DNA from: a virus
Taxonomy: Duplodnaviria > Heunggongvirae > Uroviricota > Caudoviricetes
Virus record (IMG/VR): IMGVR_UViG_2531839450_000010
Span: 1 to 40,942 of that record
DNA length: 40,942 nt
Direction: 5' to 3' (one strand)
The number at the start of each line of letters is the position of its first letter. The first letter of the stretch is position 1. This document shows positions 1,445-35,363 of the stretch, piece by piece. Both the position numbers and the translations under genes were made by a program. A model generated the notes under the pieces. It worked only from the letters and a program-made list of their open reading frames with translations, had not been told where the DNA came from and made no database searches.

Positions 1445-2356
1445 TTGGAAAGCAAGGAAACTCAGGAAGGTTTACGCCTTGGTGAGCTTTTCGGCTATTA
1501 CGGTCACGGTCGCCGACAGCTGACTGGCAAACTGGAAGTACCAGAAACCAGCGTGATCATGGTGGAAGGTCGCCCGGTCGTAATCGACAATGTTCCGGCG
1601 TGTCGCACAGTGGCTATATCTGTTGACGACAACGGCATCGTTACCCATACACAGGAAATTCTTAACACAGAGCCGGGTAAAATTGTCGCCGCGATGATCG
1701 AAAGCCGAGCTGGTGGCTGGAGCTGGGCCACTGGCGGGCGCGAGTCCGGGAAAATCGCTGTAACCACCAGCTTCCATGGTGTGGATTATGTGACAACGCC
1801 GAACTATATCAGTCTGGATCATCCTGCCAGCGCCGGAATGTTTGAAAGCGCGGATTCTAAATCTCTACTGGCAGAGTCCCTGGCGGCGCATGGGTACTCC
1901 GACGAGTCAGTGCAGGCAGTTATATCCCATTACGGCAAAATGGCTGAACTGGAAATGATGGTGGAGGCGACAGAGCGTACGGCAGAACTGGAAACCGCAC
2001 TACTCGAAAGCCAGGGCCGCCACCTCGAAGCAATGGCCAAGATCGCAGATGCTGAAGCGCGAATCGCTTTGCTGGAGGAAACAGCGGGTATCCGCGACGA
2101 TGTGCTGGCAGCAATGCAAGACGAACTGGATAACCTCCCGATCTTCGTCTCCGCCGCCCAAAAAGACGCATTCCGCCTCAAAGAACCTGGTGATGCAAAA
2201 ATCGTTGCCACACTTTTCGAATCTCTGATCAAAGTTGGCGCACGCAACTTGCCTGTCACCAGGAAAATTAAGGAGGTTCCGCAAGCGGCTAACGTCCAGG
2301 CACCGCGTGAGACAAGCATCATCACGTTTAATAATTCAATCAATCCGTTCAAATAA
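1445..2356 (+). CDS. Head maturation protein, protease/scaffold-like
   Basis: 303-aa ORF with a central coiled-coil-like Ala/Glu/Leu-rich stretch, directly after the portal-like gene. Track start is TTG, so the true start is uncertain. Confidence 0.4.
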   Translation: MESKETQEGLRLGELFGYYGHGRRQLTGKLEVPETSVIMVEGRPVVIDNVPACRTVAISVDDNGIVTHTQEILNTEPGKIVAAMIESRAGGWSWATGGRESGKIAVTTSFHGVDYVTTPNYISLDHPASAGMFESADSKSLLAESLAAHGYSDESVQAVISHYGKMAELEMMVEATERTAELETALLESQGRHLEAMAKIADAEARIALLEETAGIRDDVLAAMQDELDNLPIFVSAAQKDAFRLKEPGDAKIVATLFESLIKVGARNLPVTRKIKEVPQAANVQAPRETSIITFNNSINPFK

Positions 2357-4096: not shown

Positions 4097-5209
4097 TTAG
4101 AATTGGTAGGTCATACCAACAGCAACGATGTTGTCGGTTGCAACCTCAGATCTTTTGGTAAATTCACTTTCATCAATCAGGTTGATCTTGTAGTCAACGA
4201 AAGCGGACATATTTTTGTTGAAGTAATAAGTCGCACCCAAGTCGATGTATTCAACCAGATCCTGGCTGCCGAACGCACCAATATTTTCACCGCGAGAGTG
4301 CAGATAAGCGATGGACGGACGCAGGCCGAAATCAAACTGGTATTGAGCAACAGCTTCAAAGTTTTTCGCCTTGTTCGCGATAAAGTCATCACCGAAGACA
4401 GTCATATTCTGAGTTTCAGAATAAGTTGCAGCCAGGTAAATGTTATTTGCGTCATATTTCAGGCCAGTAGCCCATACTTCAGCAGTTTTACCAGAAGCAT
4501 TCAGAGGATCCTTTTTAGCATAGGATACCTGCCCATCAGTACGATCAGATTTTGCATAGGTTGCACCAACGCCAAATCCTTCATAATCGTAAGTAGCAGA
4601 CAGACCAAAGCCATCACCATTAGATTCAACTACGTCACGGCCTTTCCAGTTGTTCACTTTTGCAGCACTATCATTTTTACCTTGATACTGCAAAGCAAAG
4701 TTCAGACCATCAACCAGGCCGAAGAAATCATTGTTACGGTAGGTGGCTACGCCAGTAGCACGCTGGGTCATAAATACATCGGTCTGAGTCCAGGTATCTC
4801 CACCAAACTCAGGCAGCACGTCAGTCCAAGCGCCAATATCATAAGCTACACCATAGTTGCGACCATAGTCGATTGAACCATAATCAGCAAAACGGAGGCC
4901 AGCAAATGCAAGACGAGTTTTATCTTTATCAGAGCCCTCAGATTCAGTACGGTTACCTTTAAATTCGTACTCCCACTGACCAAAACCGGTTAACTGGTCA
5001 TTAATCTGAGTTTCACCTTTGAATCCCAGACGAGCATAAGTCTTATCTCCGTCATCACTAGCTGAAGAAGAGAAGTAATGTTCTGCGTTAACTTTGCCGT
5101 ACAGATCCAGTTTATTACCGTCTTTGTTGTAGATTTCAGCTGCTTGCGCAGACATTGCCATCAGGACAGATGCTGCAACCGCAGAGAGTGCCACTGTGTA
5201 TTTTTTCAT
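4097..5209 (-). CDS. Outer-membrane porin, OmpC/OmpF family, closest to phage Lc / NmpC type
   Basis: 370 aa with signal peptide [24 protein letters not shown]-terminal [16 protein letters not shown] and C-terminal aromatic motif ending ...GMTYQF, closely resembling the NmpC/Lc porin sequence as I recall it. Confidence 0.9.
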
Positions 5210-5948
5210 TTTTTTGCCCTTTAGATTGAACTTTTCAGTAGAAAAGAAGTCACTGCGGACAAATGTTTATCTTTTTTGGATTCGTGTTTCAAGTTTTGCA
5301 AATAAAAATCAAGGTATTTTTGTGATCAAAATCACAAATAATAGCCTTGAAAACCCAATGGACTATTAGAAAAAACTCAATTCACAGAATAAAAATTGAC
5401 AAAATAGATCAAAAAACAATCAAAAATAAGCACAAAAGACAAACAATTAAATTATCACAAAAATAATAACCGTCAAAAATAGATAGCCTGTTAATTAACA
5501 GGGCTTTAATGGATGTAGACTTGAAATCTACTTAAAAATTAGAATCAAATTAATTACTGCCGATTGGGTATTAAATTGAATCTATATTGTGAGAGTTAAA
5601 GACGATGTGTTTTAGTTATAAATGTTATTCCCTAAAATGGAGCGGTCTCATCGAATCCTGATTAATAACGAGCTAAGCTAATTCATTTTAGTATGTGTAT
5701 ATCTTTACCCTCTGAATATGCAATAAAGAAGAGATATTAAACAATATGTAGCTTCAGGATTGACTCTGGAAGAATTAAAAGATCGACTAAAGTGTTCAAT
5801 ATGTGGTGAGCGAAACGCAAAAATTAATTTTTTTGATCTAACATATTAGGTAACGGCTTGCTTCCATAACCTAAAGCAAGCCACTACGCGTTTACTTTAA
5901 GTACACAATTAACATATCAGAACAGATTATTTTTGCACAATCAGGGAG
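5210..5948. promoter_or_regulatory. Long AT-rich non-coding region upstream of the porin gene (probable promoter/regulatory region)
   Basis: About 740 bp with no ORF of 60 aa or more. Contains a perfect 16-bp palindrome CCTGTTAATTAACAGG (5487..5502) and a GTAGA/TCTAC inverted repeat (5515..5531). Confidence 0.5.
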
Positions 5949-6260
5949 TTAATATACGATCTGGTCTACATGATCACCAAAATCATCATCGTCGTCGTCA
6001 TCATCGCCACCATCTACTGCTGGCCAATCAACAAACCAGCCAGCGTAAAGATGCAGCGTTCGGAGAACATCACTTGCGGGAGCATCAAGGGTGTTAACGA
6101 ATCCCATATAGCTATTGGGATTTGCCCCAGCTATGGCTTCAGCGATCATGTCCTCGGTAATGTCACCGGAGATAATGCTTAAACGCCCGGAAACTTCTTC
6201 ATTATCATCAAATTCGATAATGGCATCTCCGCCTAATGGCGCTGCGATTTTAATCTGCAT
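5949..6260 (-). CDS. Small highly acidic protein with a poly-Asp tract, last gene of the dar-like operon
   Basis: 103 aa; ATG overlaps the end of the upstream 995-aa gene (translational coupling). Sequence ends ...VDGGDDDDDDDDFGDHVDQIVY. Confidence 0.6.
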   Translation of the reverse strand: MQIKIAAPLGGDAIIEFDDNEEVSGRLSIISGDITEDMIAEAIAGANPNSYMGFVNTLDAPASDVLRTLHLYAGWFVDWPAVDGGDDDDDDDDFGDHVDQIVY

Positions 6261-9237
6261 TATTTAGCTCCTTTGCCACACCTAATAACAGTTCCAGCAA
6301 TCCGTCACCATTCATCAGTGATGCGGCAGCGGCCTCTTTGTCATGATACAACTGAAGAGCCATAGAGAATACTTCCGTTGCTGACGTTTTGGAAATAGTC
6401 GGTGATTTCTGCCGAATTTTCCCGGTGTTACTTACTGAGGCTGGCGGGTATACCTTCGCCATATAAATATTACTCAATCGAGATCTGAAGCACCATTCAG
6501 GCTTGCCACGCCCACCGATATTAACGAAAGATGGCTTATCCCCTTCAACATTGGCCTTCAGGAATGACCGGGCTTTCTCTAACAAACCAGGGTTACTGTA
6601 CTCAAGATGATGACCCAGCTCGTGCCACAGTGCACTTGCATTTTCATCGTTCAAATTGACAGCAACAACACCATTAATATTTGCATATGCCCTTCCCTGG
6701 TGGTGAACCACCTTTGATAAGGTCGAAATTTTACCGCCGGTCAGGCGATAAATATCAGCAAGTTCCTTGCGCAGGTCTATCCCACCATTCTGTCCAGCGC
6801 GGGCTTCTTCCACTTCTTCCGTGATAAAAGAGTCGGCCCACTCAAGAGCTTTTTCTTCAGATACGGATGAGTTGGCGATCGCACTGTTCATGGCAGATAA
6901 CACTTTCTCGTGGACCGAACCCATACTTTGCTGATTCATTTGCCAGCGTGTCTGCGGGTTATATGAGAATCGCTTAAGTAGTTGGTCAAGATGCTCAAGT
7001 TCTTCTTCGCTGACATACTTTTTAGCCTCACCAATAATGCCGGGGAGAATATTGCCGTTAGGATTAAACGCTCGCGAAAGGAAGAGTTTCAGCGCCCCCA
7101 TGCCCTCCGATGCTTCAATATCACCAATAACACGGTTAACAATGGCCGCACTCTTCGGATTAGCATCCGCCAACGCTCTGGCTACGATTTGCAGGGACGA
7201 TACGACCTCACGCTGCATATCAGTCCTGATCTCATCAATAAACTCTGGCGTTATGCCGTGCTCTTTAAGGATATCCCTGCCTTCCGCCGTTACCCCATCG
7301 ATATCACCGACATGTTTATTAACCTGACTTTGCAATGCCTTAAATGCCCTCAGAATTCCACGGGCATCATCAGCTTTACTAACGGCCTTCCTGAATGCTG
7401 GCAAGAAGTCAGAGTTAACCTCATTTTGTTGATCGGCCCACTGAATGGAGGCTTCTTTCATCTCGTCCAGAGTCAAATCACCCAACGCGGTATGGTCTGT
7501 GAATATGAGCGACAACCTCTGAACCATTTCTGCCAATGGTGATGCCGAATGCGCCGCGCTAAGGAATGCTTTCACCCTGGTTGGGCGAATGGAAAACCAG
7601 TCAATAGCTGGTGGCATATCTCCGTTTTTTATCGCCTGCGCTATCTCGTCAAAGCCATCGCGCCCAAGGGAGGATGCGTGATTTAACAAGCCGCGAAGTA
7701 ACGAATTGCTGATACCGAATAATCGGCACCATTTTTTCACGTCGGCAACAGGCATTCGAACAAAATGCGCAAGCACTTGTACAAGCTGTTCATCCTGGGG
7801 ATCTGTGCGGGAAAGCAGCCTGATCAGATGAATAATGTCTTTGATGCCGGATGTCCGATGTAATAGCAAACTGGTATACGGAGCAACACCGTTGTAACTA
7901 CCGCCGGAAACGGACTCGAAAAGACCGCCGGATATCCCTTGCATGCCTTCGTTTTCCAGTTCCTGAGACACCTGGCGAAGGATATCCTGTAACGACACAT
8001 CGCCGCCGCCAAACATATCCCCCAGCGCCTGGCCCTGGTGCTGTAACTCATCATTGATACGTTGAGCCATCAACTTAAAGGCGGTGGCCATACGCTTCGC
8101 GCTACGGTTATTCGCGACGATGAACAACGCGAGTGCTTTCACTTCCGGGGCCATTTCGCTGAACATATCCCCCTGAGCAATAACATCGGTAATATGCTGG
8201 CCTGACTCCTTCGATTGCCTTACCAGGTCTACCGCATCTTTCAATGCCGCCAGCGCCTTTTTATCGAGGCTATCCGCTGTCTCAATGCCATCAACAATAG
8301 TTGTCACAGCCTGCTTGTGCGCTTCTCCTGATAAAGCCTGCATCTGGACAAAATCATTGGCTGCCGCATTAAGCGCCGTCAGAACATTACGCATATCCGG
8401 ATCAGGTTCTTCTGCAACCATCCTTACCAGGCGCGCATCCTTATATGCCTTGGCAAAGATCGCGTTTTGTATACGGTCAACAAGTTGCCGCGTTGGTCGC
8501 CCATCTTCCGTTACAAGGCCAGCCGCCTGTGTGGCACCAACTTGCGTCATAAATCCGCGAATAAACGCGTCATTACTGCGGCTAAGCAGATCTCCGCTTT
8601 CTGACGGGTTAAAAAGCGCCATCATCGCCGGTGTTATGCTGTCGGCATCAACAAAAGCCTTTTCACTGGCTGCCATTTCCTGAAGATCAGAAATATTTGA
8701 GTCCTTGGCAAACTGAACGCGGTCAACCTTGGTTAACCGGCGGCGCACCAGTACCGGAGCCGTCATTGATTCAACCTTTTCAGGTCGTATGCCGAATTCG
8801 GTCGCATGATCAATCAGGTACTCACGATACCGATCCGCATTGCCGTCCTGATAGGCTTTGATGATCCCCATGGTCCGTCCATTACCTGACTCAACGGCAT
8901 TGTCCTCACCAATTATCGGCGCACCATGGCTGGATAAACCGGAATCAGTAAGCTGAGCAGGCCGCAAATCTTTGGATATCTGGTTAACCTGAAGAAGGCT
9001 GGATGCGCGGGTCCGGTCGCGCGGCTGAAGTTCCTGGGGATAGTCAGGATTAATTTTCCCATCCAGAGTATTGGATACCAAAAGAGCTGAGGCATCGACG
9101 ATATCAAACGCTGTTTTTACCTCGTCTCCCTTCGCTGTCACCACATACGAAACCCGCCCATAATCGGGCAGGTTCTTTAGCAGCTCGATCAGCGTTTCTA
9201 TGCTGGTGGCCATTACCACCTGATCGCTTAAGCTCAT
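6250..9237 (-). CDS. ddrB: Large dar-operon protein (P1 DdrB-like)
   Basis: 995-aa ORF directly downstream of the DarA-like and DdrA-like genes in one operon. Name assigned from recalled P1 gene order; no motif verified. Confidence 0.45.
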   Translation of the reverse strand: MSLSDQVVMATSIETLIELLKNLPDYGRVSYVVTAKGDEVKTAFDIVDASALLVSNTLDGKINPDYPQELQPRDRTRASSLLQVNQISKDLRPAQLTDSGLSSHGAPIIGEDNAVESGNGRTMGIIKAYQDGNADRYREYLIDHATEFGIRPEKVESMTAPVLVRRRLTKVDRVQFAKDSNISDLQEMAASEKAFVDADSITPAMMALFNPSESGDLLSRSNDAFIRGFMTQVGATQAAGLVTEDGRPTRQLVDRIQNAIFAKAYKDARLVRMVAEEPDPDMRNVLTALNAAANDFVQMQALSGEAHKQAVTTIVDGIETADSLDKKALAALKDAVDLVRQSKESGQHITDVIAQGDMFSEMAPEVKALALFIVANNRSAKRMATAFKLMAQRINDELQHQGQALGDMFGGGDVSLQDILRQVSQELENEGMQGISGGLFESVSGGSYNGVAPYTSLLLHRTSGIKDIIHLIRLLSRTDPQDEQLVQVLAHFVRMPVADVKKWCRLFGISNSLLRGLLNHASSLGRDGFDEIAQAIKNGDMPPAIDWFSIRPTRVKAFLSAAHSASPLAEMVQRLSLIFTDHTALGDLTLDEMKEASIQWADQQNEVNSDFLPAFRKAVSKADDARGILRAFKALQSQVNKHVGDIDGVTAEGRDILKEHGITPEFIDEIRTDMQREVVSSLQIVARALADANPKSAAIVNRVIGDIEASEGMGALKLFLSRAFNPNGNILPGIIGEAKKYVSEEELEHLDQLLKRFSYNPQTRWQMNQQSMGSVHEKVLSAMNSAIANSSVSEEKALEWADSFITEEVEEARAGQNGGIDLRKELADIYRLTGGKISTLSKVVHHQGRAYANINGVVAVNLNDENASALWHELGHHLEYSNPGLLEKARSFLKANVEGDKPSFVNIGGRGKPEWCFRSRLSNIYMAKVYPPASVSNTGKIRQKSPTISKTSATEVFSMALQLYHDKEAAAASLMNGDGLLELLLGVAKELNNAD

Positions 9238-9249
9238 CCCTGTTACGCC

Positions 9250-9615
9250 TTATGCTGCCTCTTTAATGTTGGCGGCTATCCATGCCGCCGTGTGCTGTTT
9301 AACCTGGTCCAGGTCGATGTATGTGCCAACATATTGACTCAAATCCTGCAAGGTACCGATAAATGCATCGGTGCTCTGATCGACGAATTTATCAGCCAGG
9401 AAATCAGCAACCAGTTTTGGCACACCATCATGTACCGAAGGTTGTTTTTCCTCGCCACTACTGCCGCCGGACACACCGTACCCCATCTGTTGCATGATCT
9501 GGTCAATTTCATCGCTGATATCCAGCAACTCCATGCCACTCGCGGTAGCCGCTTTGGACATCAGAGCATCCAACTTATCGCTGAGATCCATTAACTCAAT
9601 AGCTGATAGTGTCAT
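9250..9615 (-). CDS. ddrA: Small dar-operon protein (P1 DdrA-like)
   Basis: 121 aa, overlaps the DarA-like stop by 4 nt. Assigned by position only. Confidence 0.4.
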   Translation of the reverse strand: MTLSAIELMDLSDKLDALMSKAATASGMELLDISDEIDQIMQQMGYGVSGGSSGEEKQPSVHDGVPKLVADFLADKFVDQSTDAFIGTLQDLSQYVGTYIDLDQVKQHTAAWIAANIKEAA

Positions 9616-11531
9616 GCCGCTACCCCCGCTTTCTGGATTGCTACCAGCAGATCAGCCAGGTGGCGAGCAGCGCCATTAACCAGCTCTTCGTTTTCCTCAA
9701 AACGCCCGGCAGCCTGAAGGGCTGCAATCGCTTCCCGGACATTACCCCGGGCGTTACGGATCTCCGCCATGTCAGTGCTTTGCATATCCATCACGTTATT
9801 GAGATATTCAATGGCTTTATTAGCCTCTGCATCTGCTTCGCTAACCGTTTCATCAGGCTGTGCCGGGGCAGGTTCTGGCTGAGTAATCTCACCGACTTCG
9901 GCCTGCAATGCATTGATCATGCTCTGCACCATTTTCTCGGTGCCAGCGCCCCCCGGATACGCAATATTGGGGAAAGTTTTTTGAAACTGAGTTTTCAGCA
10001 TTACGCGGAACTCGTCTGGTGAGCTGGTGGCCAGCTCCAGAGCTTTTTGTGCATATTTGCCAAACGGACCATTAGTAAGTGTCTTCGCCAAGAAGTCGAA
10101 AGAATCCTCGCGAGGCAATAACTTCAGGTCGTACTCACTCATTTGCTGATCAGAAAGCGGGGTATCGTAAGTAGCAATGCCGTAGCGTGCATATTCATAA
10201 TACGGGTCACCTTCATCAGGGCGCGGCAGAATTGCTTTGTTACCTTCAGGTATTGCGCCAGGGGCCGCCGGACGCATTTGCAGGGCATATCGATATGCAC
10301 CTACAGAGATTTCTGGTTCAGGCGAAGAGCTACCGGTATCCTCCGCTGGTTCAGGTTCGACGTTTTCCGGTTTATGTTCTTCTGGTTGGACCAGGTATTC
10401 CGATACATTACCCGCTTTATAGGCTTTAAACAGCTTGCCGATCGCATCTGCCATGTCCACACCCTGTATGGATTTAGCCTTGATCATGTACACGCTGCCA
10501 TCCGAATCGGTTAACTGGATATACCCTTCACCGTCCTCAATGAATTGCTTCATTGATGCACCATTACTGAGCGTCACTTCCCCGTTCATATGCATACGAT
10601 TTTTGATACTTGCAAGGCGATCCGTCATCGCGCGAGAGTGTCCACCAGTCATCCCCGCAGGAGCAATGGTTTCGCGCCCACCAGTTCGATTGAGCTGATC
10701 AATCTCCGTCTGCAAACGCTCATTCTCTTCATAAAGAGAATCCGCTTCCGATGCAACAGCGTTAATTTTCTGCTCCAGATCTACCTTCTGCCCTTCTACC
10801 GCTGCCACCTGATCCGCGAGGTCGCTCATGGCATCCTCTTTCTGGTCACTGTCAGCCTGTAGTTGGGTTATTTCATCAACCAGGGCTTTTTTCTTCTTCT
10901 GCGCACGCTGGAATTTTGCCGAGTTTTTCTCTGCAAGGTTGGCAAGTTTCATGGTGACCTGCGCCAGCGTCATATCACGTCCACTCATCGGAGCAACGGT
11001 ATGAGTAACGTCTTTTTTATTCAGTAAGAACTGGAAAGCAATCAGCGTATCGCTATTGGTGATCCGGTTTTCCGCTGTCGGGCTATGAAACAGAATGCTG
11101 ATAGTCTGACCATCACTGAGCGGAATAATGGCTGGCAGGACCGGCAGCCCGTTAACGTTACGTGCCCGGCCAATTTCAGCCCCGCCGATCGCGCGTGCAC
11201 CGTTCTGGGCCACATCCCCCGTTTTATCACTCCCCGCAGAGATTCCGGTACCATTCAGCTTCTGGTTCAATGCCCGGACAAATGCCTGCATGGTCCGGTG
11301 TAGCTGCAAACGAGTAGAACTAATCGCCTCCAGTAAATCCGTAGCACACCAGTGGATCGGCGTGTCATAGAAGAACGTAGCCTCGATTTCCTCCAGGGTG
11401 TTGGATTCCGTCATCAGATAGCGGTCCTCACCGGCCATTAATGCGCGATATTCATCATCAGTCACTGGCGGGGGAAGCACGTCAAGCCCAGGTTTGATCG
11501 TCACCCCTTTATTGATATTGAACTGTTCCAT
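9612..11531 (-). CDS. darA: Antirestriction virion protein (P1 DarA-like)
   Basis: 639 aa with a central coiled-coil region; shares a short motif (KNSAKFQ) with the preceding 203-aa protein, consistent with the P1 Hdf (homolog of DarA fragment) relationship. Confidence 0.55.
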   Translation of the reverse strand: MEQFNINKGVTIKPGLDVLPPPVTDDEYRALMAGEDRYLMTESNTLEEIEATFFYDTPIHWCATDLLEAISSTRLQLHRTMQAFVRALNQKLNGTGISAGSDKTGDVAQNGARAIGGAEIGRARNVNGLPVLPAIIPLSDGQTISILFHSPTAENRITNSDTLIAFQFLLNKKDVTHTVAPMSGRDMTLAQVTMKLANLAEKNSAKFQRAQKKKKALVDEITQLQADSDQKEDAMSDLADQVAAVEGQKVDLEQKINAVASEADSLYEENERLQTEIDQLNRTGGRETIAPAGMTGGHSRAMTDRLASIKNRMHMNGEVTLSNGASMKQFIEDGEGYIQLTDSDGSVYMIKAKSIQGVDMADAIGKLFKAYKAGNVSEYLVQPEEHKPENVEPEPAEDTGSSSPEPEISVGAYRYALQMRPAAPGAIPEGNKAILPRPDEGDPYYEYARYGIATYDTPLSDQQMSEYDLKLLPREDSFDFLAKTLTNGPFGKYAQKALELATSSPDEFRVMLKTQFQKTFPNIAYPGGAGTEKMVQSMINALQAEVGEITQPEPAPAQPDETVSEADAEANKAIEYLNNVMDMQSTDMAEIRNARGNVREAIAALQAAGRFEENEELVNGAARHLADLLVAIQKAGVAA

Positions 11532-11532
11532 G

Positions 11533-12144
11533 TTAATTTCCTGCTTTCAGTTGCTTAAGACGGCGTTTGAGTTCGCCATTTCGGGCCTTTTCGTTATTGA
11601 GTCGGCCTGTCTCCTTATCCAGCTTCGCCCGCAAATCAGTGATCTGCTGTTGATTGAAAGACACCGAGTTCTGCGCTGATTTATAAGCGGCAACCACCTG
11701 AGCATTCCGCTGTTTTGCCTCTTGCAGGCGCTGAAAGTTGGATTTTACTGCCGGTTTCTTGTCTACCGGATTGGCAACACGTTTCGCTTTGGCGATCAGT
11801 GATTTCTGGAATTTTGCGGAGTTTTTGCGGGCCGCTTGCCCCATGACGGTACCAAGCGTCTTGATATCCGGCGACTGAGCGTTAGGAATAGCTTTTCCAT
11901 TCAGCCTCACAGACGATATATCGCCAGTATCGTTTACCTGTATGGCAAGAATTTGTCCGTCGTTAAGAACCAGCTTTGCGGTTTTAACTTTAACGCCATC
12001 TTTCGTTGTTGCGCGGTTGCTGGAGTCAACCTCAATTACCGTAACACCGGTTTTATTGATCGCCGCGATAAGGGATTTCAGCCCCTTTTCATTAACCTGG
12101 TCAAAATCGACCGTTGCATACTTATTTTTCGTCATCTGACACAT
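11533..12144 (-). CDS. hdf: Hdf-like protein (homolog of DarA fragment)
   Basis: 203 aa immediately upstream of the DarA-like gene, sharing the KNSAKFQ motif and a basic coiled-coil C-terminus. Confidence 0.45.
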   Translation of the reverse strand: MCQMTKNKYATVDFDQVNEKGLKSLIAAINKTGVTVIEVDSSNRATTKDGVKVKTAKLVLNDGQILAIQVNDTGDISSVRLNGKAIPNAQSPDIKTLGTVMGQAARKNSAKFQKSLIAKAKRVANPVDKKPAVKSNFQRLQEAKQRNAQVVAAYKSAQNSVSFNQQQITDLRAKLDKETGRLNNEKARNGELKRRLKQLKAGN

Positions 12145-12565
12145 CCTGTGCGAGATTTATTACGTAACTTCTGCGGATTTGCTGAGTAACAGGGAAAATC
12201 CGATACAACGGGTTAATGAACGAGTCGCCATGCGTAACCATGACGTTGAAATGCCACAGTCGCTCTCCTTTACCCATATATTCAGTGGGTATGTACAACC
12301 ATTCACTGTTTTCGCCCTGTTCAGCCGACGTCAGACAACGTTGTTCGCCTTCAATCACTGTCGTTGGCTTCTGAACATCGCGGATCCAATATCTGACCGT
12401 TGCGCCGCGCAAAAACGGGAATTTAGACCGGTATTTGAACGGCACCCGGATGAAACCCGGTTTAATTTCCACATCACCAAGTTCTAAATGCGTGATGTCC
12501 TTGCGTTTTAGCAAATAGCGATCGGCTAAGGCTAACGCAAGAACGCATACACCCCAGCCAATCAT
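12122..12565 (-). CDS. lydB: Antiholin-like protein (P1 LydB-like)
   Basis: 147 aa, overlaps the holin gene end; position and size match the P1 lydA-lydB pair heading the dar operon, by recall. Confidence 0.45.
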   Translation of the reverse strand: MIGWGVCVLALALADRYLLKRKDITHLELGDVEIKPGFIRVPFKYRSKFPFLRGATVRYWIRDVQKPTTVIEGEQRCLTSAEQGENSEWLYIPTEYMGKGERLWHFNVMVTHGDSFINPLYRIFPVTQQIRRSYVINLAQDVSDDEK

Positions 12566-12891
12566 TTCCCGCCTCCCTTTTTCACCAAACTTGTAAGAAC
12601 ATTCAGAATGCTATCGATATTCACTCGTTTCATCCCTGAAATCACCTCATGACCGTTATTGCTGGCTATCGTTACCATTAAGTACGTAATTGATAACTCC
12701 CAGCCCTCGTGTTGCCCCAATAGGTACGCCACCGCGCCAGCTGTCACTGCAACAAAGATCTCCGTAACCAATCCCAACAAATTGCCAGACTGGCGACCGT
12801 CTCGGACATCCATCAGGAACGTGCCTATCCCACCAATTACTGAAAGCAGGAGCGCAATAGCAACTGGAGCTAATTCCTGTGTGTCAAGCAC
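12562..12891 (-). CDS. lydA: Holin (P1 LydA-like)
   Basis: 109 aa with hydrophobic transmembrane segments (APVAIALLLSVIGGIGTFLM; IFVAVTAGAVAYLLG) and a charged C-terminus. Confidence 0.6.
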   Translation of the reverse strand: MLDTQELAPVAIALLLSVIGGIGTFLMDVRDGRQSGNLLGLVTEIFVAVTAGAVAYLLGQHEGWELSITYLMVTIASNNGHEVISGMKRVNIDSILNVLTSLVKKGGGK

Positions 12892-12951
12892 AAGTTCCCT
12901 CCTACGTTGTCAGGAGGTAATGGTATGCAAAGTAACTTCTCATCTGGTTGT

Positions 12952-13236
12952 TCATAATTTGCCAATACATTCGTAAATCAAGTGAAAAACCCATATTTTG
13001 GTTATTCTTAATACAAAATGGCTATTCCAACTACATATCAAAAAAGCAACCACATCCAAAAATGAGTTTCCCCACTGAACTTCTGCAAGACAAAAACCAA
13101 CAAAACCACCTTTTATGGCAAGCAGCCATGCTTCAAGCCAATGTAAAAAACATGGCTTATAAGCTCCACGCCTAACTCCAGTAAGAAATAAATAGGTTCC
13201 ACTAATAATGGACATTAAAAAAATCAAAATCTGCAT
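12952..13236 (-). CDS. Hypothetical small hydrophobic protein (may be spurious in an AT-rich divergent promoter region)
   Basis: 94-aa ORF between lydA and cin; Trp/Cys/Phe-rich, no recognisable motif. Confidence 0.2.
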   Translation of the reverse strand: MQILIFLMSIISGTYLFLTGVRRGAYKPCFLHWLEAWLLAIKGGFVGFCLAEVQWGNSFLDVVAFLICSWNSHFVLRITKIWVFHLIYECIGKL

Positions 13237-13357: not shown

Positions 13358-13918
13358 ATGCTGATCGGCTATGTACGCGTATCAACAAATGAACAAAACA
13401 CTGCTTTGCAACGAAATGCCCTTGAAAGCGCAGGATGTGAGCTAATTTTTGAGGATAAGGCGAGCGGCAAACAGACTGAACGCCCTGGGCTAAAAAAGGT
13501 TTTGCGTATGCTTTCCAGAGGTGACACCCTGGTCGTATGGAAGTTAGATCGTCTTGGGCGCAGCATGCGTCACTTGGTTGTGCTGGTGGAAGAGCTGCGT
13601 GACAGAGGAATTAATTTCCGGAGTCTCGCTGACTCTATCGACACCAGTACACCAATGGGGCGCTTTTTCTTTCACGTAATGGGAGCGCTGGCAGAAATGG
13701 AACGTGAGCTTATCGTTGAACGTACACGCGCTGGACTTGATGCAGCTCGCGCAGAAGGTCGTATAGGTGGGCGTCGGCCTAAATACCAAGAAGAAACATG
13801 GCAGCAAATGCGGCGATTGCTGGAGAATGGCATCCCCCGTAAGCAGGTTGCAATCATCTATGATGTGGCTGTTTCCACGCTTTATAAGAAGTTTCCGGCG
13901 TCGTCATTTCAATCCTAA
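13358..13918 (+). CDS. cin: Serine DNA invertase, Hin/Gin/Cin/Pin family
   Basis: 186 aa; N-terminal MLIGYVRVSTNEQNT with the catalytic Ser, and conserved GDTLVVWKLDRLGRS and GRIGGRRPK blocks closely matching Gin. The stop codon lies inside the left crossover site. Confidence 0.92.
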   Translation: MLIGYVRVSTNEQNTALQRNALESAGCELIFEDKASGKQTERPGLKKVLRMLSRGDTLVVWKLDRLGRSMRHLVVLVEELRDRGINFRSLADSIDTSTPMGRFFFHVMGALAEMERELIVERTRAGLDAARAEGRIGGRRPKYQEETWQQMRRLLENGIPRKQVAIIYDVAVSTLYKKFPASSFQS

Positions 13919-13935
13919 ACCTTGGTTTAAGAGAA
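13910..13935. other. Invertase crossover site, left (cixL-like 26-bp site)
   Basis: CAATCCTAAACC-TT-GGTTTAAGAGAA: AAACC/GGTTT half-sites around a 2-bp core, directly abutting cin. Confidence 0.8.
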
Positions 13936-14065
13936 CTCGGTACCAGCGGTGAAAAGATCCCCCTGTTGAGCACGGCTAACACATGGAGTGCGCGCCAGAT
14001 TTTCAACGGAGGGATCACCGGGGCACTGACAGGGAACGCCGACACCGCGACGAAATTGAAAACAG
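13924..14065. repeat. Left inverted repeat of the invertible segment (~140 bp, ~95% identical to the inverse of 17645..17786)
   Basis: Direct comparison of this stretch with the reverse complement of the right-hand copy shows only a handful of mismatches before the sequences diverge. Confidence 0.8.
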
Positions 14066-15123
14066 CACGCACTATTGGCGGTGTGGCATTTGATGGTACT
14101 GCGAATATTAATTTACCTGGTGTTAACGTTGCGGGTAATCAGAATACATCCGGTAACGCGGCTACAGCGACCAAGTTGCAGACAGCATGTACTATCAACG
14201 GCGTCTCGTTTGATGGTTCTAAAAATATTGAGCTAACGGCGGAAGATTTAAATCTACAGGAATTTATTAATAAAGCAAATAATGCCGTTCAGCGTTCAGG
14301 CGATATCTTGTCCGGCGGACTTACTTTTGAAAACGACTCAATCCTTGCCTGGATTCGAAATACTGACTGGGCGAAGATTGGATTTAAAAATGATGCCGAT
14401 GGTGACACTGATTCATACATGTGGTTTGAAACAGGGGATAACGGCAATGAATATTTCAAATGGAGAAGCCGCCAGAGTACCACAACAAAAGACCTGATGA
14501 CGTTGAAATGGGATGCACTAAATATTCTTGTTAATGCCGTCATTAATGGCTGTTTTGGAGTTGGTACGACGAATGCACTAGGTGGTAGCTCTATTGTTCT
14601 TGGTGATAATGATACCGGATTTAAACAGAATGGAGACGGTATTCTTGATGTTTACGCTAATAGTCAGCGAGTATTCCGCTTTCAGAATGGAGTTGCTATT
14701 GCTTTTAAAAACATTCAGGCAGGTGATAGTAAAAAGTTCTCGCTATCCAGCTCCAACACCTCCACAAAGAATGCAACGTTTAATTTATGGGGTGCTTCCA
14801 CCCGTCCAGTGGTTGCAGAATTAGGCGATGAGGCCGGATGGCATTTCTATAGCCAGCGAAATACAGATAACTCGGTAATATTTGCTGTTAACGGTCAGAT
14901 GCAACCCAGCAACTGGGGAAATTTTGATTCCCGCTATGTGAAAGATGTTCGCCTGGGTACGCGAGTTGTTCAATTGATGGCGCGAGGTGGTCGTTATGAA
15001 AAAGCCGGACACACGATTACCGGATTAAGAATCATTGGTGAAGTAGATGGCGATGATGAAGCCATCTTCAGGCCGATACAAAAGTACATCAATGGCACAT
15101 GGTATAACGTTGCGCAGGTGTAA
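13966..15123 (+). CDS. Alternative tail-fibre variable C-terminal segment (Sv'), promoterless in this orientation
   Basis: Frame is open back to the crossover site (13924) and encodes GLRELGTSGEKIPLLSTANTWSARQ, identical to the junction in the expressed fibre gene. C-terminus ...INGTWYNVAQV parallels the other copy. Confidence 0.8.
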   Translation: MSTANTWSARQIFNGGITGALTGNADTATKLKTARTIGGVAFDGTANINLPGVNVAGNQNTSGNAATATKLQTACTINGVSFDGSKNIELTAEDLNLQEFINKANNAVQRSGDILSGGLTFENDSILAWIRNTDWAKIGFKNDADGDTDSYMWFETGDNGNEYFKWRSRQSTTTKDLMTLKWDALNILVNAVINGCFGVGTTNALGGSSIVLGDNDTGFKQNGDGILDVYANSQRVFRFQNGVAIAFKNIQAGDSKKFSLSSSNTSTKNATFNLWGASTRPVVAELGDEAGWHFYSQRNTDNSVIFAVNGQMQPSNWGNFDSRYVKDVRLGTRVVQLMARGGRYEKAGHTITGLRIIGEVDGDDEAIFRPIQKYINGTWYNVAQV

Positions 15124-15126
15124 GTT

Positions 15127-15654
15127 ATGCAGCATTTAAAGAACATTAAGTCAGGTAATCCAAAAACAAAAGAGCAATATCAGCTAACAAAGAATTTTGA
15201 TGTTATCTGGTTATGGTCCGAAGACGATAAAAACTGGTATGAGGAAGTGAAAAACTTTCAGCCAGACACAATAAAGATTGTTTACGATGCAAATAATATT
15301 ATTGTCGCCATCACTAAAGATGCCTCCACGCTTAACCCTGAAGGTTTTAGCGTCGTTGAGGTTCCTGATATTACAGCCAACCGCCGCGCTGATGATTCAG
15401 GAAAGTGGATGTTTAAGGATGGAGCTGTAGTTAAACGGATTTATACGGCAGACGAACAGCAACAACAGGCCGAATCACAAAAGGCCGCATTGCTTTCCGA
15501 AGCTGAATCAGTCATCCAGCCGCTGGAACGCGCTGTCAGGCTGAATATGGCAACAGACGAGGAACGCACACGACTGGAAGCATGGGAACGCTACAGTGTT
15601 CTGGTCAGCCGTGTGGATACGGCAAATCCTGAATGGCCACAAAAGCCTGAATAA
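15127..15654 (+). CDS. Tail fibre assembly protein (U'-type, alternative copy)
   Basis: 175 aa, N-terminus [22 protein letters not shown], paralogous to the 177-aa protein on the opposite strand; typical Tfa size and position. Confidence 0.85.
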
Positions 15655-15659
15655 AAATT

Positions 15660-15679
15660 AAGGCCCGCTATCGGGCCTT
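15660..15679. terminator. Bidirectional terminator-like hairpin between the convergent tail-fibre-assembly genes
   Basis: AAGGCCCG-CTAT-CGGGCCTT stem-loop in the 28-bp gap between the two stop codons. Confidence 0.6.
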
Positions 15680-15682
15680 GTC

Positions 15683-16216
15683 TCATTCAGGTTGTTCGGG
15701 AAATGTTACTGGCAGGCTGGAGGTGTCTGTAGATTCGACTTTCTGCGCATAGAGCATCCACTCAGTTAATTTTTGTTTATTCTCGTCGGAAATGATGCCC
15801 AGCCGTAGCTGTGAGTCCCATAGCTGGGTTTTATCCCTGACAAGTTGCAACAGGCTTTGTTTTTCATTCTCTGCCTGCTGCCTTTGTTCCTCCTCGGTAT
15901 AAGTTCGCTTTATCACTACGCCATCTTTGAACATCCATTTACCCGAAATATCAGCCCGGCGATTTGCTGTAATATCAGGAACCTCAACGACGCTTGCGCC
16001 TTCTGGATTAATTGCTGAAACATCCTTTTCAATACAAATAATAACGTCGTTGTGGTCATAGACCATTTTCAACGTATCAGGCTGAAAGTTCTTTTGTTCC
16101 TCATACCAGTTTTTCCCATCCTCTGTATAAAGCCATTTGATGTTAAATTGTTTCGTTAGCTGGTATTGCTCTTTTGTTTCAGGATTACCAGCAGAAATGT
16201 TTTTTAAGTGCATCAT
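15683..16216 (-). CDS. U: Tail fibre assembly protein (U-type, expressed orientation)
   Basis: 177 aa, [22 protein letters not shown]...; directly follows the tail-fibre gene. Confidence 0.85.
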   Translation of the reverse strand: MMHLKNISAGNPETKEQYQLTKQFNIKWLYTEDGKNWYEEQKNFQPDTLKMVYDHNDVIICIEKDVSAINPEGASVVEVPDITANRRADISGKWMFKDGVVIKRTYTEEEQRQQAENEKQSLLQLVRDKTQLWDSQLRLGIISDENKQKLTEWMLYAQKVESTDTSSLPVTFPEQPE

Positions 16217-16218
16217 CG

Positions 16219-16590
16219 TTAAATACTCCCCGCGTTATACCACGTCCCATTAATGCAATACTGAATTGGCCTTGCCTGAGTTGTATCAATTAATTCATCA
16301 CGGTTTCCGTTAACTGAACCTGTAACGACATAACCTGACCTGTCAGACCAGCCGGGACCATTCCATGTCTGAACAGATGACAGACCGCCCAGGCGAATAC
16401 CTGTAATAAACCTTGAGTTACATTCTGCCTGCGTATATGCACCAACATCCCCCGCAGAGGGTTTGCGGGTTGTGGTGTAAAACTCTGACCAGTTAGCTTC
16501 AAAGCCATAACCATCACGCGCTGAACGATAAAAGATACCGCCGTTCTTATAATTCACGCGGAACTGTACAGCAGGGCAACTCCCCCGCAT
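16219..16590 (-). CDS. Tail-fibre C-terminal fragment in a shifted frame (continuation of the fibre gene after a frameshift)
   Basis: C-terminus ...ARPIQYCINGTWYNAGSI parallels the alternative copy's ...FRPIQKYINGTWYNVAQV. Overlaps the end of the 16547..19147 frame at a C5/G5 run. Confidence 0.7.
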   Translation of the reverse strand: MRGSCPAVQFRVNYKNGGIFYRSARDGYGFEANWSEFYTTTRKPSAGDVGAYTQAECNSRFITGIRLGGLSSVQTWNGPGWSDRSGYVVTGSVNGNRDELIDTTQARPIQYCINGTWYNAGSI

Positions 16591-19147
16591 TCATATTGAA
16601 GTGGAGGATTAATGTCGATGCGCCACTGATATCTGCATCATAAACGCCGCTATTCCAGTTCCAGCCAACAGCTTTATCATTTGCAACCTTGCTTCCTGTT
16701 TGCCCTAAAGCAAATGCAGGCTGCTGGTTTTTCGTGTTGTAGTCTCTTCGCCAGCCAGGAGCATAAGCATCACCATGATTAATATAAGTGAATTGAGCGT
16801 TAGTAATTCCGCCACCGCTGGACGTGCTCGGCGTAGTAACGCGTATGGTCATTGCGCCGCGAGTGCCAATAACTTCCACCACAGCACCTGCAAGACAAAT
16901 ATTTCCGCAACCTGTATCTGTAATGACCTTATTATTTGCATAAGCCCATGAGCCTTTGCACATCCAGTAAGGATGGTTAAATGCTCCCTGACTCTCCAGC
17001 CACGAAATAAATTGCGCGGTTGTCCAGACCTGACTATCGCCACCAATATTCAGCCATGCGCTATATGCGCGGCAGGCACCAATATTTTTGGTGAAGGTAT
17101 CTTTTCCCGGAATATCTGCGCCGTTCTGGTTTTTCTGTAATGCTCCTGCGGCTAATTCTACAGTTTGCTCAAGATTTAAATCTGCCGCCGTTAGCTCAAT
17201 ATTTTTAGAACCGTCAAACGAGACACCGTTGATAGTACACGCCGTCTGCAATTTGGTCGCTGTAGCCGCATTACCAGAGGTGTCCTGATTCCCTTTGGTA
17301 TTAACGCCGGGAACGGAATCTTTTGACGTATAGATCTGTGCCCATTCGGACCATGCCGCAGCAGTGCTATCTCTTTTGGATCGAATGAAAGCTGGTGCAT
17401 GAGCGCCATTTGTGCCACTCCAGCCAATGAGCAACTCGCCTTCACCAGTGGATGCAGCTCCCTTCAGGTGAAGTACATTCCCGTAAGTCGTCGGATAACC
17501 ATTGTTGTATGCCTCATACATCTGCAATCCAGTAGCAGCACCTTGCGTTGTACCGGTAAGCGCAGTAACGCGTCCTCTAGACGTAATTGTTGGTATCGAA
17601 ATGTTCGTAGAACCATCGAATCTGACGCCATTAATGTTTATGGCTGTTTTTAATTTCGTCGCGGTGTCGGCGTTCCCTGTCAGCGCCCCGGTGATCCCGC
17701 CGTTAAAAGTCTGGCGTGCACTCCATGTGTTAGCCGTGCTCAACAGGGGGATCTTTTCACCACTGGTACCGAGTTCTCTTAAACCAAGGTATTGGATAAC
17801 AGCAAGAACGCTTGTTTTGGCCAGAATATCGCGACCGACTGACGTTAAGTCAGTCTGAGAAACAGTGTCTGTACCGGTAAAGTACGGCAATTTATTTGCG
17901 CCTGTCGCAAGACCAGCAAGCGCGGTTAAAGTTGCATCAAGTGGCTGTTTCCCTGCCAGCGCATTTGTCATTGTTGTCGCAAAGTTCGGGTCATTGCCCA
18001 GTGCTGCTGCAAGCTCATTCAGGGTATCAAGAGCTTCAGGTGATGAGCCGACCAATGCAGAGATAGCAGCCCGTACGTAAGCAGTCGTAGCGATCTGCGT
18101 ATTGTTTGTGCCCTGTGCAGCCGTAGGCGCAGTAGGGACACCCGTTAATGCAGGGCTTGCCAAAGGCGCTTTGAGAGCCAAGGCATTGTTGATAGTTGTG
18201 CTGTAATTCGGGTCGTTATTGATCGCAGCCGCTATTTCTTTCAGCGTATCCAGTGTGCCAGGCGCACCGTTGATAAGTGCAGTTATAGCTGCCTTAACAA
18301 AGGCTGTATTTGCGATCTGCGTGCTGTTTGTACCTTGCGCTGCCGTCGGCGCTGTTGGCGTTCCTGTCAGACTCGGGCTTTCTATTGGCGCTTTGGTATC
18401 AGCCAGATCTTTTATAGACTTAACAGCTTTAGGGGTAGCCGCCATTGTTTCGCTGTCGCTGTTAGTTGCGCTACTGAGCTGAACTAATCCCTTTTGCGTT
18501 GTGCTTGCATCCTGCGCCGTATACTTGCTTTTCGCCAGATCGTAGGCTTTTTTAACTGCCAGCGAACTTGCCGCAACATCACTTCTGGTACTGGTTACAG
18601 AGTCTGAAATATCAATGCCGATAGTGCGGTTGATACGCTCTGATGTATCAATCATCTCTTGGGTAATGGCAGATACACCAGCAGGAATATTCACCGTACA
18701 AACAAGCAGCTCTCCATCTCCTAACTGATATGAATCGGTATAGGTTCTGGCAATAAATTCAGCCGCATGAATATGTGACGCTGTATTAACCTGATAGGTA
18801 TCTTCTCCAAGGAGGTATCTTCCCTTCAGCACAATTGCATATTTCTTGCCTGCACTAAGTGCAAGAGAAATATCCTTACGGTGCTGAATAGTTACCTGGT
18901 AGAATTCACCAATATCCACCGACGCCGCGCCTGCGGTTTTATCACCATCCACTGAGGTGATTAACAGGTTCATCCCACCGCCAGGCTTAGGTAAGAAACC
19001 GGCATAAAATCCCGGGTCAACAATCCCCCTGAATTTTCGGTTTAGCGCGGCTGACAGATATGGTTCGTGGTATTGCACATCAGCCACCAGAGCCAACGAC
19101 TCGGGTGATGGGTAAGTAACTGATGTAACAACTGTAACGTCATTCAT
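16547..19147 (-). CDS. S: Tail fibre protein (S-type; constant N-terminal part plus variable part), interrupted near the C-terminus by a frameshift
   Basis: Contains tandem fibre repeats (APxxSPxLTGxPTAPTAAQGTN.TQIA.TA.V). Likely start is the ATG at 19147 with an AAGGA RBS; the track start at 19234 is upstream of it. The right crossover site lies inside the gene. Confidence 0.85.
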   Translation of the reverse strand: MNDVTVVTSVTYPSPESLALVADVQYHEPYLSAALNRKFRGIVDPGFYAGFLPKPGGGMNLLITSVDGDKTAGAASVDIGEFYQVTIQHRKDISLALSAGKKYAIVLKGRYLLGEDTYQVNTASHIHAAEFIARTYTDSYQLGDGELLVCTVNIPAGVSAITQEMIDTSERINRTIGIDISDSVTSTRSDVAASSLAVKKAYDLAKSKYTAQDASTTQKGLVQLSSATNSDSETMAATPKAVKSIKDLADTKAPIESPSLTGTPTAPTAAQGTNSTQIANTAFVKAAITALINGAPGTLDTLKEIAAAINNDPNYSTTINNALALKAPLASPALTGVPTAPTAAQGTNNTQIATTAYVRAAISALVGSSPEALDTLNELAAALGNDPNFATTMTNALAGKQPLDATLTALAGLATGANKLPYFTGTDTVSQTDLTSVGRDILAKTSVLAVIQYLGLRELGTSGEKIPLLSTANTWSARQTFNGGITGALTGNADTATKLKTAININGVRFDGSTNISIPTITSRGRVTALTGTTQGAATGLQMYEAYNNGYPTTYGNVLHLKGAASTGEGELLIGWSGTNGAHAPAFIRSKRDSTAAAWSEWAQIYTSKDSVPGVNTKGNQDTSGNAATATKLQTACTINGVSFDGSKNIELTAADLNLEQTVELAAGALQKNQNGADIPGKDTFTKNIGACRAYSAWLNIGGDSQVWTTAQFISWLESQGAFNHPYWMCKGSWAYANNKVITDTGCGNICLAGAVVEVIGTRGAMTIRVTTPSTSSGGGITNAQFTYINHGDAYAPGWRRDYNTKNQQPAFALGQTGSKVANDKAVGWNWNSGVYDADISGASTLILHFNMNAGELPCCTVPREL
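17645..17786. repeat. Right inverted repeat of the invertible segment
   Basis: Reverse complement matches 13924..14065 at about 95%. Confidence 0.8.
17774..17799. other. Invertase crossover site, right (cixR-like 26-bp site)
   Basis: TTCTCTTAAACC-AA-GGTATTGGATAA; the outer half-site reverse complement TTATCCAATACC resembles the classic hix/gix half-site. Confidence 0.8.
18040..18484 (-). repeat. Tandem direct repeat (2 x ~222 bp) inside the tail-fibre gene, encoding two 74-aa fibre repeats
   Basis: The string GCGATCTGCGT recurs at 18090 and 18312, with extended similarity between the two units. Confidence 0.7.
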
Positions 19148-19158
19148 CAAGCATATCC

Positions 19159-19593
19159 TTATGCTGTTGTCGTGTTTATGGCCATAACTGCGGTATATGT
19201 TTTGCCCACATACAGCGAGTCTTCCTGGACACAAATAATGGCGATTGGCTTGTTCTCGTTATCCAGAACAACCAGAGTGTTGAATGGGTAGTTTTTCCCT
19301 TCCTGCAACTGGCTTTGATCAAGGTCCATTCGGACAGTAATTATCCCGCCTGAGTAGGTTGGGACGAGGTTGATGGTGCAAAATTGACTGGTCAGTTCTG
19401 CCAGATCGAAAACCTTTGGCAGTTCTCCAATCTCATAAGTGCCATCTCCTTTCTTAGTAACCAGTGAACTGGTACCGAAAACGGCCTTGCTGATTAAAAA
19501 TCGAGAGCCTTTGTTAATGGACGATTCAGCGCGCCGCTGATAGTAATAGTCCAACAACTGACTCTTATAGAGGTTTGTTGAGACGTCAGACAT
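19159..19593 (-). CDS. Tail-fibre-associated structural protein (P1 R-like)
   Basis: 144 aa immediately upstream of the tail-fibre gene; assigned by position. Confidence 0.4.
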   Translation of the reverse strand: MSDVSTNLYKSQLLDYYYQRRAESSINKGSRFLISKAVFGTSSLVTKKGDGTYEIGELPKVFDLAELTSQFCTINLVPTYSGGIITVRMDLDQSQLQEGKNYPFNTLVVLDNENKPIAIICVQEDSLYVGKTYTAVMAINTTTA

Positions 19594-27916: not shown

Positions 27917-28393
27917 TCATTTTGCGCGCTTCAGGCAGCCATCTTCAGGTGCCGCGTTGAAAAGCTCTGCGGCCTTACGTAGCGTAAATGTTGCGATTTT
28001 TTTTCCGTCTACGTATGCATCGAATGTTTTAACTTCCATATCAGGGGTATCTGACCAAAAACCATACCAGTAACTATCACCCACAGAGGAACCGATAGAA
28101 CTGATAGGATATTCATCATCACCAACTTTCAGCGTTATTTGTTCTTTTTTAGCATCAAATGACTCACCGCCAGGTTCTGTTTTCATGAGAGTGAGTAGTC
28201 GTGTTCCTACTTGATTGGGATCCGTATTATTAAATCCAACATCGCACTCAAATGTAAGCGTATAATTATCTTTGCTGGAAACAGCATAAGAACGAACACC
28301 ATGAGTCTCGCCGGTTGACCATTTGCTTACATTTGCCATTGATGAAAATGGAGTAAGCAAAGCAAGAATTAGAAAAAATCGTTTGATGCGCAT
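27917..28393 (-). CDS. Secreted/periplasmic protein
   Basis: 158 aa with N-terminal signal peptide MRIKRFFLILALLTPFSSMA. Confidence 0.5.
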   Translation of the reverse strand: MRIKRFFLILALLTPFSSMANVSKWSTGETHGVRSYAVSSKDNYTLTFECDVGFNNTDPNQVGTRLLTLMKTEPGGESFDAKKEQITLKVGDDEYPISSIGSSVGDSYWYGFWSDTPDMEVKTFDAYVDGKKIATFTLRKAAELFNAAPEDGCLKRAK

Positions 28394-28454
28394 TAATTTA
28401 TCTCCTTTGGATATTAACGATTATCAATATTTTAATTGGTTATCCATAATATAT

Positions 28455-29102: not shown

Positions 29103-29198
29103 TATAACCTCACCTGCCTTATAACTCATTTAGGGTACATATTTTCGCCTTTAAAAAAAAGAGGTTATTAGATCCATTTGTGTATTTATTAAACAAAC

Positions 29199-31757: not shown

Positions 31758-31822
31758 CAGACGTAGTAAGAACCACCAGCATTGTAATGCTGGCTAAAGT
31801 CACTTTCCTGAGCTGTATAACG

Positions 31823-32630
31823 ATGAGCGATTTTACTTTTTCTGGCTATGAATTGGCCTGCTTTGTAACACACTCCGGTCTATCCCGTAGCGCCGGGCAT
31901 ATCCTGTCGCAATGTGCAAATCTCGCGGCAACAACCAGTGAATACTTCATTCACAAGCCTCACCGCCTGATCGCGGCAGAAACTGGTTATAGCCAATCAA
32001 CCGTCGTTCGTGCATTCCGTGAAGCTGTAAACAAAGGAATTCTGTCTGTAGAGATTGTTATCGGCGATCACCGTGAACGTCGCGCTAACCTGTACCGGTT
32101 TACACCATCCTTTTTGGCCTTCGCACAACAAGCCAAAAATGCGCTGATTGAAAGCAAATTAAAGATCTCTTCAGCGGCAACCAAGGTTAAAGCTGTTCTC
32201 GCTAAGACATTGGCTTTATTTAATTTTTTATCCACACCCCCATGTCAAAATGATACCCCCTCCCCCTGTCAGGATGACGTGGCAATAAAGAATAAGAAGT
32301 CACAAGTTAAAAAACAAAAGATCAGTTTCCGGCGGTGCCGGAACGACCAGACTCAAAAAATTGACTTCATGGATCGCTGAGGCAAAAGCAAAGGCTGACA
32401 ATCTGCGGTTATCCAAAAAACGCGCTCAAAAACATGAGTTCAAGCAGAAAGTAGAGGCGGCAGCGCGGAAATATGCTTACCTGAAGAACAAGCGTTCTCC
32501 TGATATTTGCGGGATATCAAACTTCGATAATCTGCCGCATTGCATGACGGTAAACGAAGCTCTTAATGCGGTTTTCGCCAAAAATAAAGATAACGAAAAA
32601 TGGGGTATACCGGCAGGATTCAGAGGGTGA
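31823..32630 (+). pseudogene. repL: Lytic replicon initiator RepL, reading frame interrupted by a +1/-1 shift in an A-rich tract
   Basis: Frame A (from MSDFTFSGYELACF...) stops at 32380, while an overlapping frame open from about 32289 continues ...SVSGGAGTTRLKKLTSWIAEAK... to 32630; together about 280 aa. A6 and A4 runs at 32309..32319 and an A6 run at 32355..32360 are the candidate slip points. Confidence 0.6.
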
Positions 32631-32893
32631 TAGATTGCTCTAATCTGGAGTCACCTGGCATTTTCAGTTTGAGGTCGGAGATGCAATCTGATTTTTACAG
32701 TTAGCGATCACTTTTTGCAGGGCATCGTTGAGACATATCCATATATAAAAACCCAAAGCCAGATCAAAACTTGTACTGATAAAAACACAGCTAACCATCA
32801 CAACTTGTAACGTTTATAATGAGTAAAAGAGTGATACATTGCTACTTTTACATATTTTTTGACTTAATTCATGGATAGTAATGGAGATGCATA

Positions 32894-33949: not shown

Positions 33950-33980
33950 TGGCTTATCTCACTCATAATGGCTAAAAAAA

Positions 33981-34010
33981 GGCTGCAACAGAGGTTGCAG
34001 CCTTTTTTAT
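33981..34010. terminator. Bidirectional rho-independent terminator
   Basis: A7 tract, GGCTGCAAC-AGAG-GTTGCAGCC stem-loop, then TTTTTTAT; sits between convergent genes. Confidence 0.75.
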
Positions 34011-34019
34011 AAAATTACA

Positions 34020-35192: not shown

Positions 35193-35363
35193 TTTAGAGT
35201 CCCCCTTTAACAGTACAGGCACAAACATCTACCTCAATAATTGTAGTTTATTAGAACATTAATAATCTAACATAAAACTCCAGACAATGTTATCGATGCA
35301 TGTTTATATAAAATAGTTATAAAAAAAGCTCCCGCAGGAGCTTTAAAATACAAGGGATGACTC

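Follow-up and report, generated by a model that had tools for sequence, protein, structure and literature searches.

The interruption of the tail-fibre gene S in the phage-plasmid contig analysed here is most probably a homopolymer-length error in the deposited draft sequence and not a feature of the phage. The contig (hereafter “the window”, 40,942 nucleotides, IMG/VR record IMGVR_UViG_2531839450_000010) carries five consecutive G residues in S on the minus strand (C5 on the plus strand, 16582..16586), and the reading frame shifts at this run, within the codons GCG GGG GAG, where good-quality homologues have four. The extra base is private to this record, it is accompanied by other private indels, and the ratio of indels to substitutions in the window is abnormal; taken together, these observations favour a sequencing error. 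Its cause would be the sequencing chemistry (probably 454 pyrosequencing) or the consensus calling, and the true run is most likely G4, which would give an ordinary, intact 975-aa S protein of the P7 type. With the Cin-invertible C segment oriented as assembled, the variable end Sv of such a protein, a tip of the Mu S' type, would continue from the constant part. A first-pass annotation of the same DNA had left three readings side by side, namely a sequencing error, a real inactivating mutation and a slippage-prone site; the first is favoured by our analysis, slippage found neither comparative nor structural support, and a real mutation remains the main rival.

The invertible tail-fibre locus and its split S frame

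The window represents a P1/P7-like phage-plasmid that is ~98% identical to phage P7 over the window’s first half, and the order of the genes around S is the same as in P7 (lydC, lydA, lydB, cin, Sv', U', U, S, R). The cin gene (13358..13918, plus strand) encodes a serine DNA invertase of 186 aa with Pfam Resolvase (E 2.9e-50) and HTH_7 domains and 99.5% identity to P7 Cin; a putative recombinational enhancer is annotated inside cin in the P7 record. It adjoins the invertible C segment, which, according to the P7 annotation and exact matches to the P7 cix sequences, extends between the cix crossovers (13923..17786) and measures 3,864 bp, compared with 3,998 bp annotated in P7. Two inverted cix sites bound the segment, the cixL 20-mer at 13913-13932 and the cixR context at 17777-17796 (both exact P7 matches), and an inverted repeat flanks it (13912-14109 and 17600-17797). 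Between these sites Sv and U on the minus strand are opposed to Sv' and U' on the plus strand, and the constant part of S, Sc (17787-19147, minus strand), lies outside the segment and is common to both arrangements. Downstream of Sv, the gene U (15683..16216, minus strand) encodes the tail-fibre assembly chaperone for the assembled orientation (Pfam Caudo_TAP, E 2e-36), which is intact in the window at 177 aa, whereas in the P7 record it is split into Ua and Ub (AF503408, 37258-37791); the P7 reference record may itself contain a frameshift or an error in U. The gene R (19159..19593, minus strand; PF26881), upstream of S in the same late operon, has a role in tail-fibre structure or assembly. 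Biologically, the locus is the textbook Cin-invertible tail-fibre switch of P1, P7 and Mu, and the architecture is without novelty: the invertase, the inverted cix sites and the two opposed Sv/U cassettes with one constant part are all shared with the P1 C segment and the Mu G segment.

The first-pass annotation had suggested that the alternative orientation may be functional, and the sequence bears this out as far as the open frames are concerned. The alternative variable fibre end Sv' (13923..15123, plus strand) is open from the cixL crossover to its stop as an uninterrupted 385-aa ORF, and it aligns without gaps to a relative (L024) at 99.75% identity, while its identity to P7 Sv' is ~66%. 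Its partner U' (15127..15654, plus strand; Pfam Caudo_TAP), the chaperone of the alternative orientation, is likewise intact at 175 aa and 99.4% identical to P7 U'. As a side observation, the C segment holds a second inverted repeat (14134-14262 and 17165-17293; 129 nt, 88% complementary), which codes for a ...GNQ(N/D)TSGNAATATKLQTACTINGVSFDGSKNIELTA... stretch common to Sv' and Sv and might allow the two fibre ends to exchange sequence by homologous recombination.

The S gene starts at the ATG at 19147 (MNDVTVVTSV..., as in P7 gpS); the mechanically called ORF begins at an upstream TTG. As deposited, the 5' piece (16547..19147, minus strand; Pfam Phage_fiber_2) comprises Sc and most of Sv. 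Across the shift the minus strand reads CAC TTC AAT ATG AAT GCG GGG GAG TTG CCC TGC TGT ACA GTT CCG CGT GAA TTA TAA, so that the frame terminates in ...NMNAGELPCCTVPREL* with its stop codon at 16549-16547. The resulting product has 866 aa, of which 855 are native and 11 are out of frame (ELPCCTVPREL), and the final 120 residues are missing. These are found in the 3' piece (16219..16581, minus strand), where the last 120 codons (SCPAVQFRVNYKNGG...GTWYNAGSI) and a stop lie in the next frame and form the distal portion of a receptor-binding tip of the Mu S' type; the corresponding ORF, which carries the fibre C-terminus, runs from 16590 to 16219 (123 aa). The earlier description of a fibre frame that stops at 16547 and a C-terminal frame that opens at 16590 was therefore confirmed by both the sequence and the ORFs, and so was the proposal that removal of one G fuses the two pieces, since deleting one G in silico gave a single stop-free ORF of 2,928 nt. 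The fused fibre is, however, 975 aa long and not about 990 aa as had been estimated, the real start being the ATG at 19147. The length of the run alone is not unusual, as the window contains 34 runs of G or C of at least five bases.

P7 gpS (AAQ07589, AF503408) aligns with the window in two consecutive frames, residues 1-858 in one (98.7% identity) and residues 855-975 in the next (100%), and homology indicates that S is demonstrably split, not that two frames adjoin by chance. After removal of one G, the window shares with P7 gpS its length of 975 aa, just as it shares the gene order R, S, U, U', Sv', cin, and in comparison with P7 gpS and relatives of equal length (RCS47 gpS and P0003) the extra G is the sole structural difference of S. 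Residues 174-488 of the phage Mu S' fibre (PDB 8ju3) are matched over their whole length by the C-terminal 315 aa of repaired S (E 2.7e-211), and this alignment is unbroken over the shift point (NMN(A/T)GSCPAVQFRV), which places the shift inside the folded receptor-binding tip, ~120 residues before its end. The DNA of Mu S', which belongs to the G(-) orientation, is 94.8% identical to the window over 782 nt, although in Mu the tip is borne on a much shorter constant part than in the window. Measured against Mu S', the tip of the deposited S is cut after the equivalent of residue ~368 of the 8ju3 chain.

Length of the G run among relatives

Homologues were retrieved from phage, plasmid and complete-genome collections, and every match was one base shorter than the window at the run. 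In the alignment P7, RCS47 and Mu S' have G4 and the Sv' of P1 reads GGGT; D108, D6 and the top-ranked plasmid and complete-genome matches have G4 too, and in all of these the frame continues uninterrupted. The exact 39-mer with G4 occurs in 37 IMG/VR contigs, compared with no IMG/VR match for the 40-mer with G5, and exact and degenerate G5 patterns returned zero matches in the GTDB representative genomes and zero in the JGI metagenome contigs. A 45-nt probe centred on G5, for which megablast can seed only where the subject also has G5, matched nothing in PLSDB or in the 5,426 complete E. coli genomes searched. The repaired S is 100% identical to the 975-aa protein P0003, encoded without interruption by 10 contigs of other NCBI assemblies. 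The G5 variant is hence private to one record and absent from near-identical sequences, as is expected of an artefact. The first-pass annotation had named homologues with a four-residue run and an uninterrupted frame as the observation that would speak for an assembly error, and G4 in an intact 975-aa gene is what the homologues have; its heading, which presented the truncation as a biological fact, is unsupported in the light of the good-quality relatives examined, all of which combine G4 with an intact gene.

Among the sequences examined, the only other changes in the length of the run are two records with G3, both from assemblies full of one-base indels in which S is broken as well. In UGCY01000002.1, 16 one-base indels are found in the surrounding 2.6 kb, and in pCFSAN004178P_01 (NZ_CP012497.1, record position ~12981) S has further one-base deletions and no listed CDS. 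Because so many other one-base indels accompany the G3 run in both records, we regard it as an error and not an allele, and the G run of S is thus a recurrent miscall site. Exact-protein look-ups of the truncated S, U, Sv' and the truncated Pro returned the window’s own contig only. The ORF from the ATG at 16590 has no exact protein on record, and a 112-aa fragment called from the 3' piece of S is also on record from UGCY01000002.1; both G3 assemblies carry it as an annotation.

Private indels, error profile and source record

A census of left-normalised indels across ~150 related loci showed that the extra base in S is one of several that are private to the window. The insertion in S (+C on the plus strand at 16582) is absent from all 37 aligned relatives, and a +G at 1447 in the head-processing gene pro/proB is absent from all 48. 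Two deletions in repL, a lytic replication gene, reduce A7 to A6 (-A at 32309) and A5 to A4 (-A at 32316), and neither is present in any of 65 aligned relatives; a third (-T at 32692), in an intergenic T run, is absent from 41 of 41. The insertion in pro changes CTTGAAAG to CTTGGAAAG at 1447-1448 and breaks the gene, which lacks the extra G in P1 and P7; the ORF restarts at 1445..2356 and covers 303 aa versus 339. The deletions at 32309-32321 split repL into 31787..32380 and 32361..32630, a frame break that is likewise seen in comparison with both P1 and P7. In IMG/VR, the pro and repL sites in the form seen in the window returned no matches, whereas the normal forms returned 46 and 63, respectively. 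Further intergenic homopolymer differences from close relatives were seen at 5209 (T8 to T7), 5835 (T9 to T8), 30800 (A7 to A6) and 32712 (a T run), and the private indels cluster, with four of them within ~400 bp (32309-32712).

The nearest relative, AAZTOK010000023.1 (GCA_017751965.1), is 99.97% identical to the window over positions 1-29147, with 8 mismatches and 4 one-base indels (+G at 1447, -T at 5209, -T at 5835 and +C at 16582). Of the 8 mismatches, four lie together as a patch within the 5' end of U, two fall in a T-run alignment and two in Sv'. Relatives compared among themselves show 52 gap openings per 4031 mismatches, against which the indels of the window are in clear excess (Fisher p = 1.4e-5 against the near-isogenic relative, or 5.5e-6 when the right-hand part is included). 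Both the additional private indels and the excess of indels over substitutions are what an artefact would leave behind. The private substitutions of the window are predominantly silent (15 synonymous, 9 non-synonymous and 2 intergenic) and the 120 codons 3' of the shift are 100% identical to P7, which implies purifying selection and no decay; on these two observations, long-term pseudogene decay was rejected.

This profile resembles that of pyrosequencing and early long-read data, whose homopolymer errors are likewise private one-base indels, mostly in runs of 4-9 bases, and the window, like other error-prone assemblies, has several indels per 41 kb that break otherwise perfectly conserved genes. 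The +G at 1447 (G to GG) is a counterpoint to an artefact, as it sits outside any long homopolymer and in this respect is unlike homopolymer errors.

Sequencing with 454 technology is notorious for homopolymer-length errors. An exact-protein look-up identified the window as the complete contig ADUR01000016.1 of the draft assembly GCA_000188855.2, and a literature search for a source paper on ADUR or GCA_000188855 that would name the platform found none. ADUS, the adjacent WGS accession, comes from the same centre and was assembled with Celera from 454 Titanium reads (PMC3715677), and ADUR would appear to belong to the same sequencing batch. A Logan re-assembly of SRR040454, which is possibly another strain, agrees with the window at every base of 5267-13217 apart from the T run at 5835, where its contig has the length seen in the relatives; no contig with an intact S gene was found in the same Logan assembly.

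The probable error also has practical consequences, because an 866-aa “tail fiber protein” (WP_248698207.1) and the 112-aa fragment have already entered the databases from the window’s contig through annotation pipelines. As a matter of quality control, the contig should not be taken to show that the tail fibre is truncated or recoded, or that pro and repL are defective.

Real mutation, chimerism and slippage as alternatives

The main alternative, which we consider unlikely, is that the phage-plasmid did acquire the extra G, very recently, as a genuine +1 frameshift mutation. The fibre of the C(+) orientation would then lose the last 120 residues of its tip and be non-functional, so that Sc-Sv' with U' alone would work, and together with the frameshifts in pro and repL the element would be a freshly defective plasmid prophage. 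The deposited sequence does read G5, and the intact Sv', U' and cin mean that the inverted orientation could still function. Homopolymers are preferred sites of spontaneous indels, and the lytic genes of a plasmid prophage are unselected during lysogeny; weak selection on such genes combined with homopolymer-prone mutation means that a recently defective prophage could look similar to an error-laden contig. The P7 reference, itself deposited with U split into Ua and Ub, can be read in the same direction. Against this, G5 is unique across all collections searched, and a real origin needs at least three independent gene-killing indels plus several intergenic ones at a distance of only 8 mismatches from an intact relative, giving an indel-to-mismatch ratio far from that among the relatives. 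The lack of decay past the shift and the purifying selection on the private substitutions fit poorly with three independent knock-outs of essential genes, and the cluster of four indels at 32309-32712 resembles a locally poor consensus more than independent events.

If G5 were real, it would be a minor natural case in which one arm of an invertible host-range switch is knocked out, which would affect the predicted host range of the phage-plasmid and would involve no new mechanism. It is doubtful that such an orientation-specific null is what the window records; inversion by Cin would then alternate a functional Sc-Sv' fibre with a dead one, and a host-range switch would in effect become an on/off switch of infectivity, perhaps an incomplete one if +1 slippage on G GGG G occasionally took place.

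A homopolymer-length error accounts for the data better than a second type of artefact, assembly chimerism, in which the plasmid consensus would have taken in reads belonging to a chromosomal prophage of the same genome with a near-identical S/U module, and which we regard as very improbable. It draws on four private substitutions that form a patch at 16180-16195 in the 5' end of U, 390 nt from the run, where the first codons of U read MMHLKNISAGNPETK in place of ...ITAGNPKTK. The near-isogenic plasmids lack this patch, but prophages on the chromosomes of two complete E. coli genomes have the identical allele, and S/U modules of this kind occur in 825 of the 5,426 complete E. coli genomes, mostly on the chromosome. 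The patch is, however, equally explicable as a genuine recombination tract, and no chromosomal copy that was searched has G5.

The least credible reading, to which we give next to no weight, is that the run is a functional slippage site at which +1 ribosomal frameshifting on G GGG G, slippage during transcription or phase variation by slipped-strand mispairing would supply the full-length fibre at a low level or switchably. A P-site Gly-tRNA could indeed re-pair perfectly after a +1 shift on GGG-G and restore the native ...A G S C P..., and three records do differ in run length (G5 in the window, G3 in UGCY01000002.1 and pCFSAN004178P_01), but the two G3 records are so full of one-base indels that they represent errors rather than alleles, and the two-frame layout is kept by no homologue, the good-quality ones examined all having G4 and a single frame. 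Stimulatory elements are likewise lacking: an upstream Shine-Dalgarno-like stimulator is not visible in the sequence, the A-site codon GAG is common and not slow, and the RNA fold of 16470-16610 is no stronger than that of shuffled sequences (z = -0.14). Recoding at G5, having neither conservation nor RNA structure, was rejected. The tracts of contingency loci and of transcriptional slippage typically reach ~7-8 bases or more, and the five G of the window are well below this length and correspond to an invariant G4 in good-quality relatives.

Outside the tail-fibre locus, the window carries an nmpC/ompC-like porin gene at 4100-5209, as does P7, and the T-run discrepancy at 5209 lies right at its start. 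Variable cargo unlike that of P7 is found at 27917-29129 and 32894-35228, where the ORFs include two secreted or lipoprotein-like proteins (158 and 224 aa), a ParA-like ATPase (351 aa, AAA_31/CbiA), a DUF3892-like protein and a 210-aa ORF, all of which are widespread in other P1-like plasmids.
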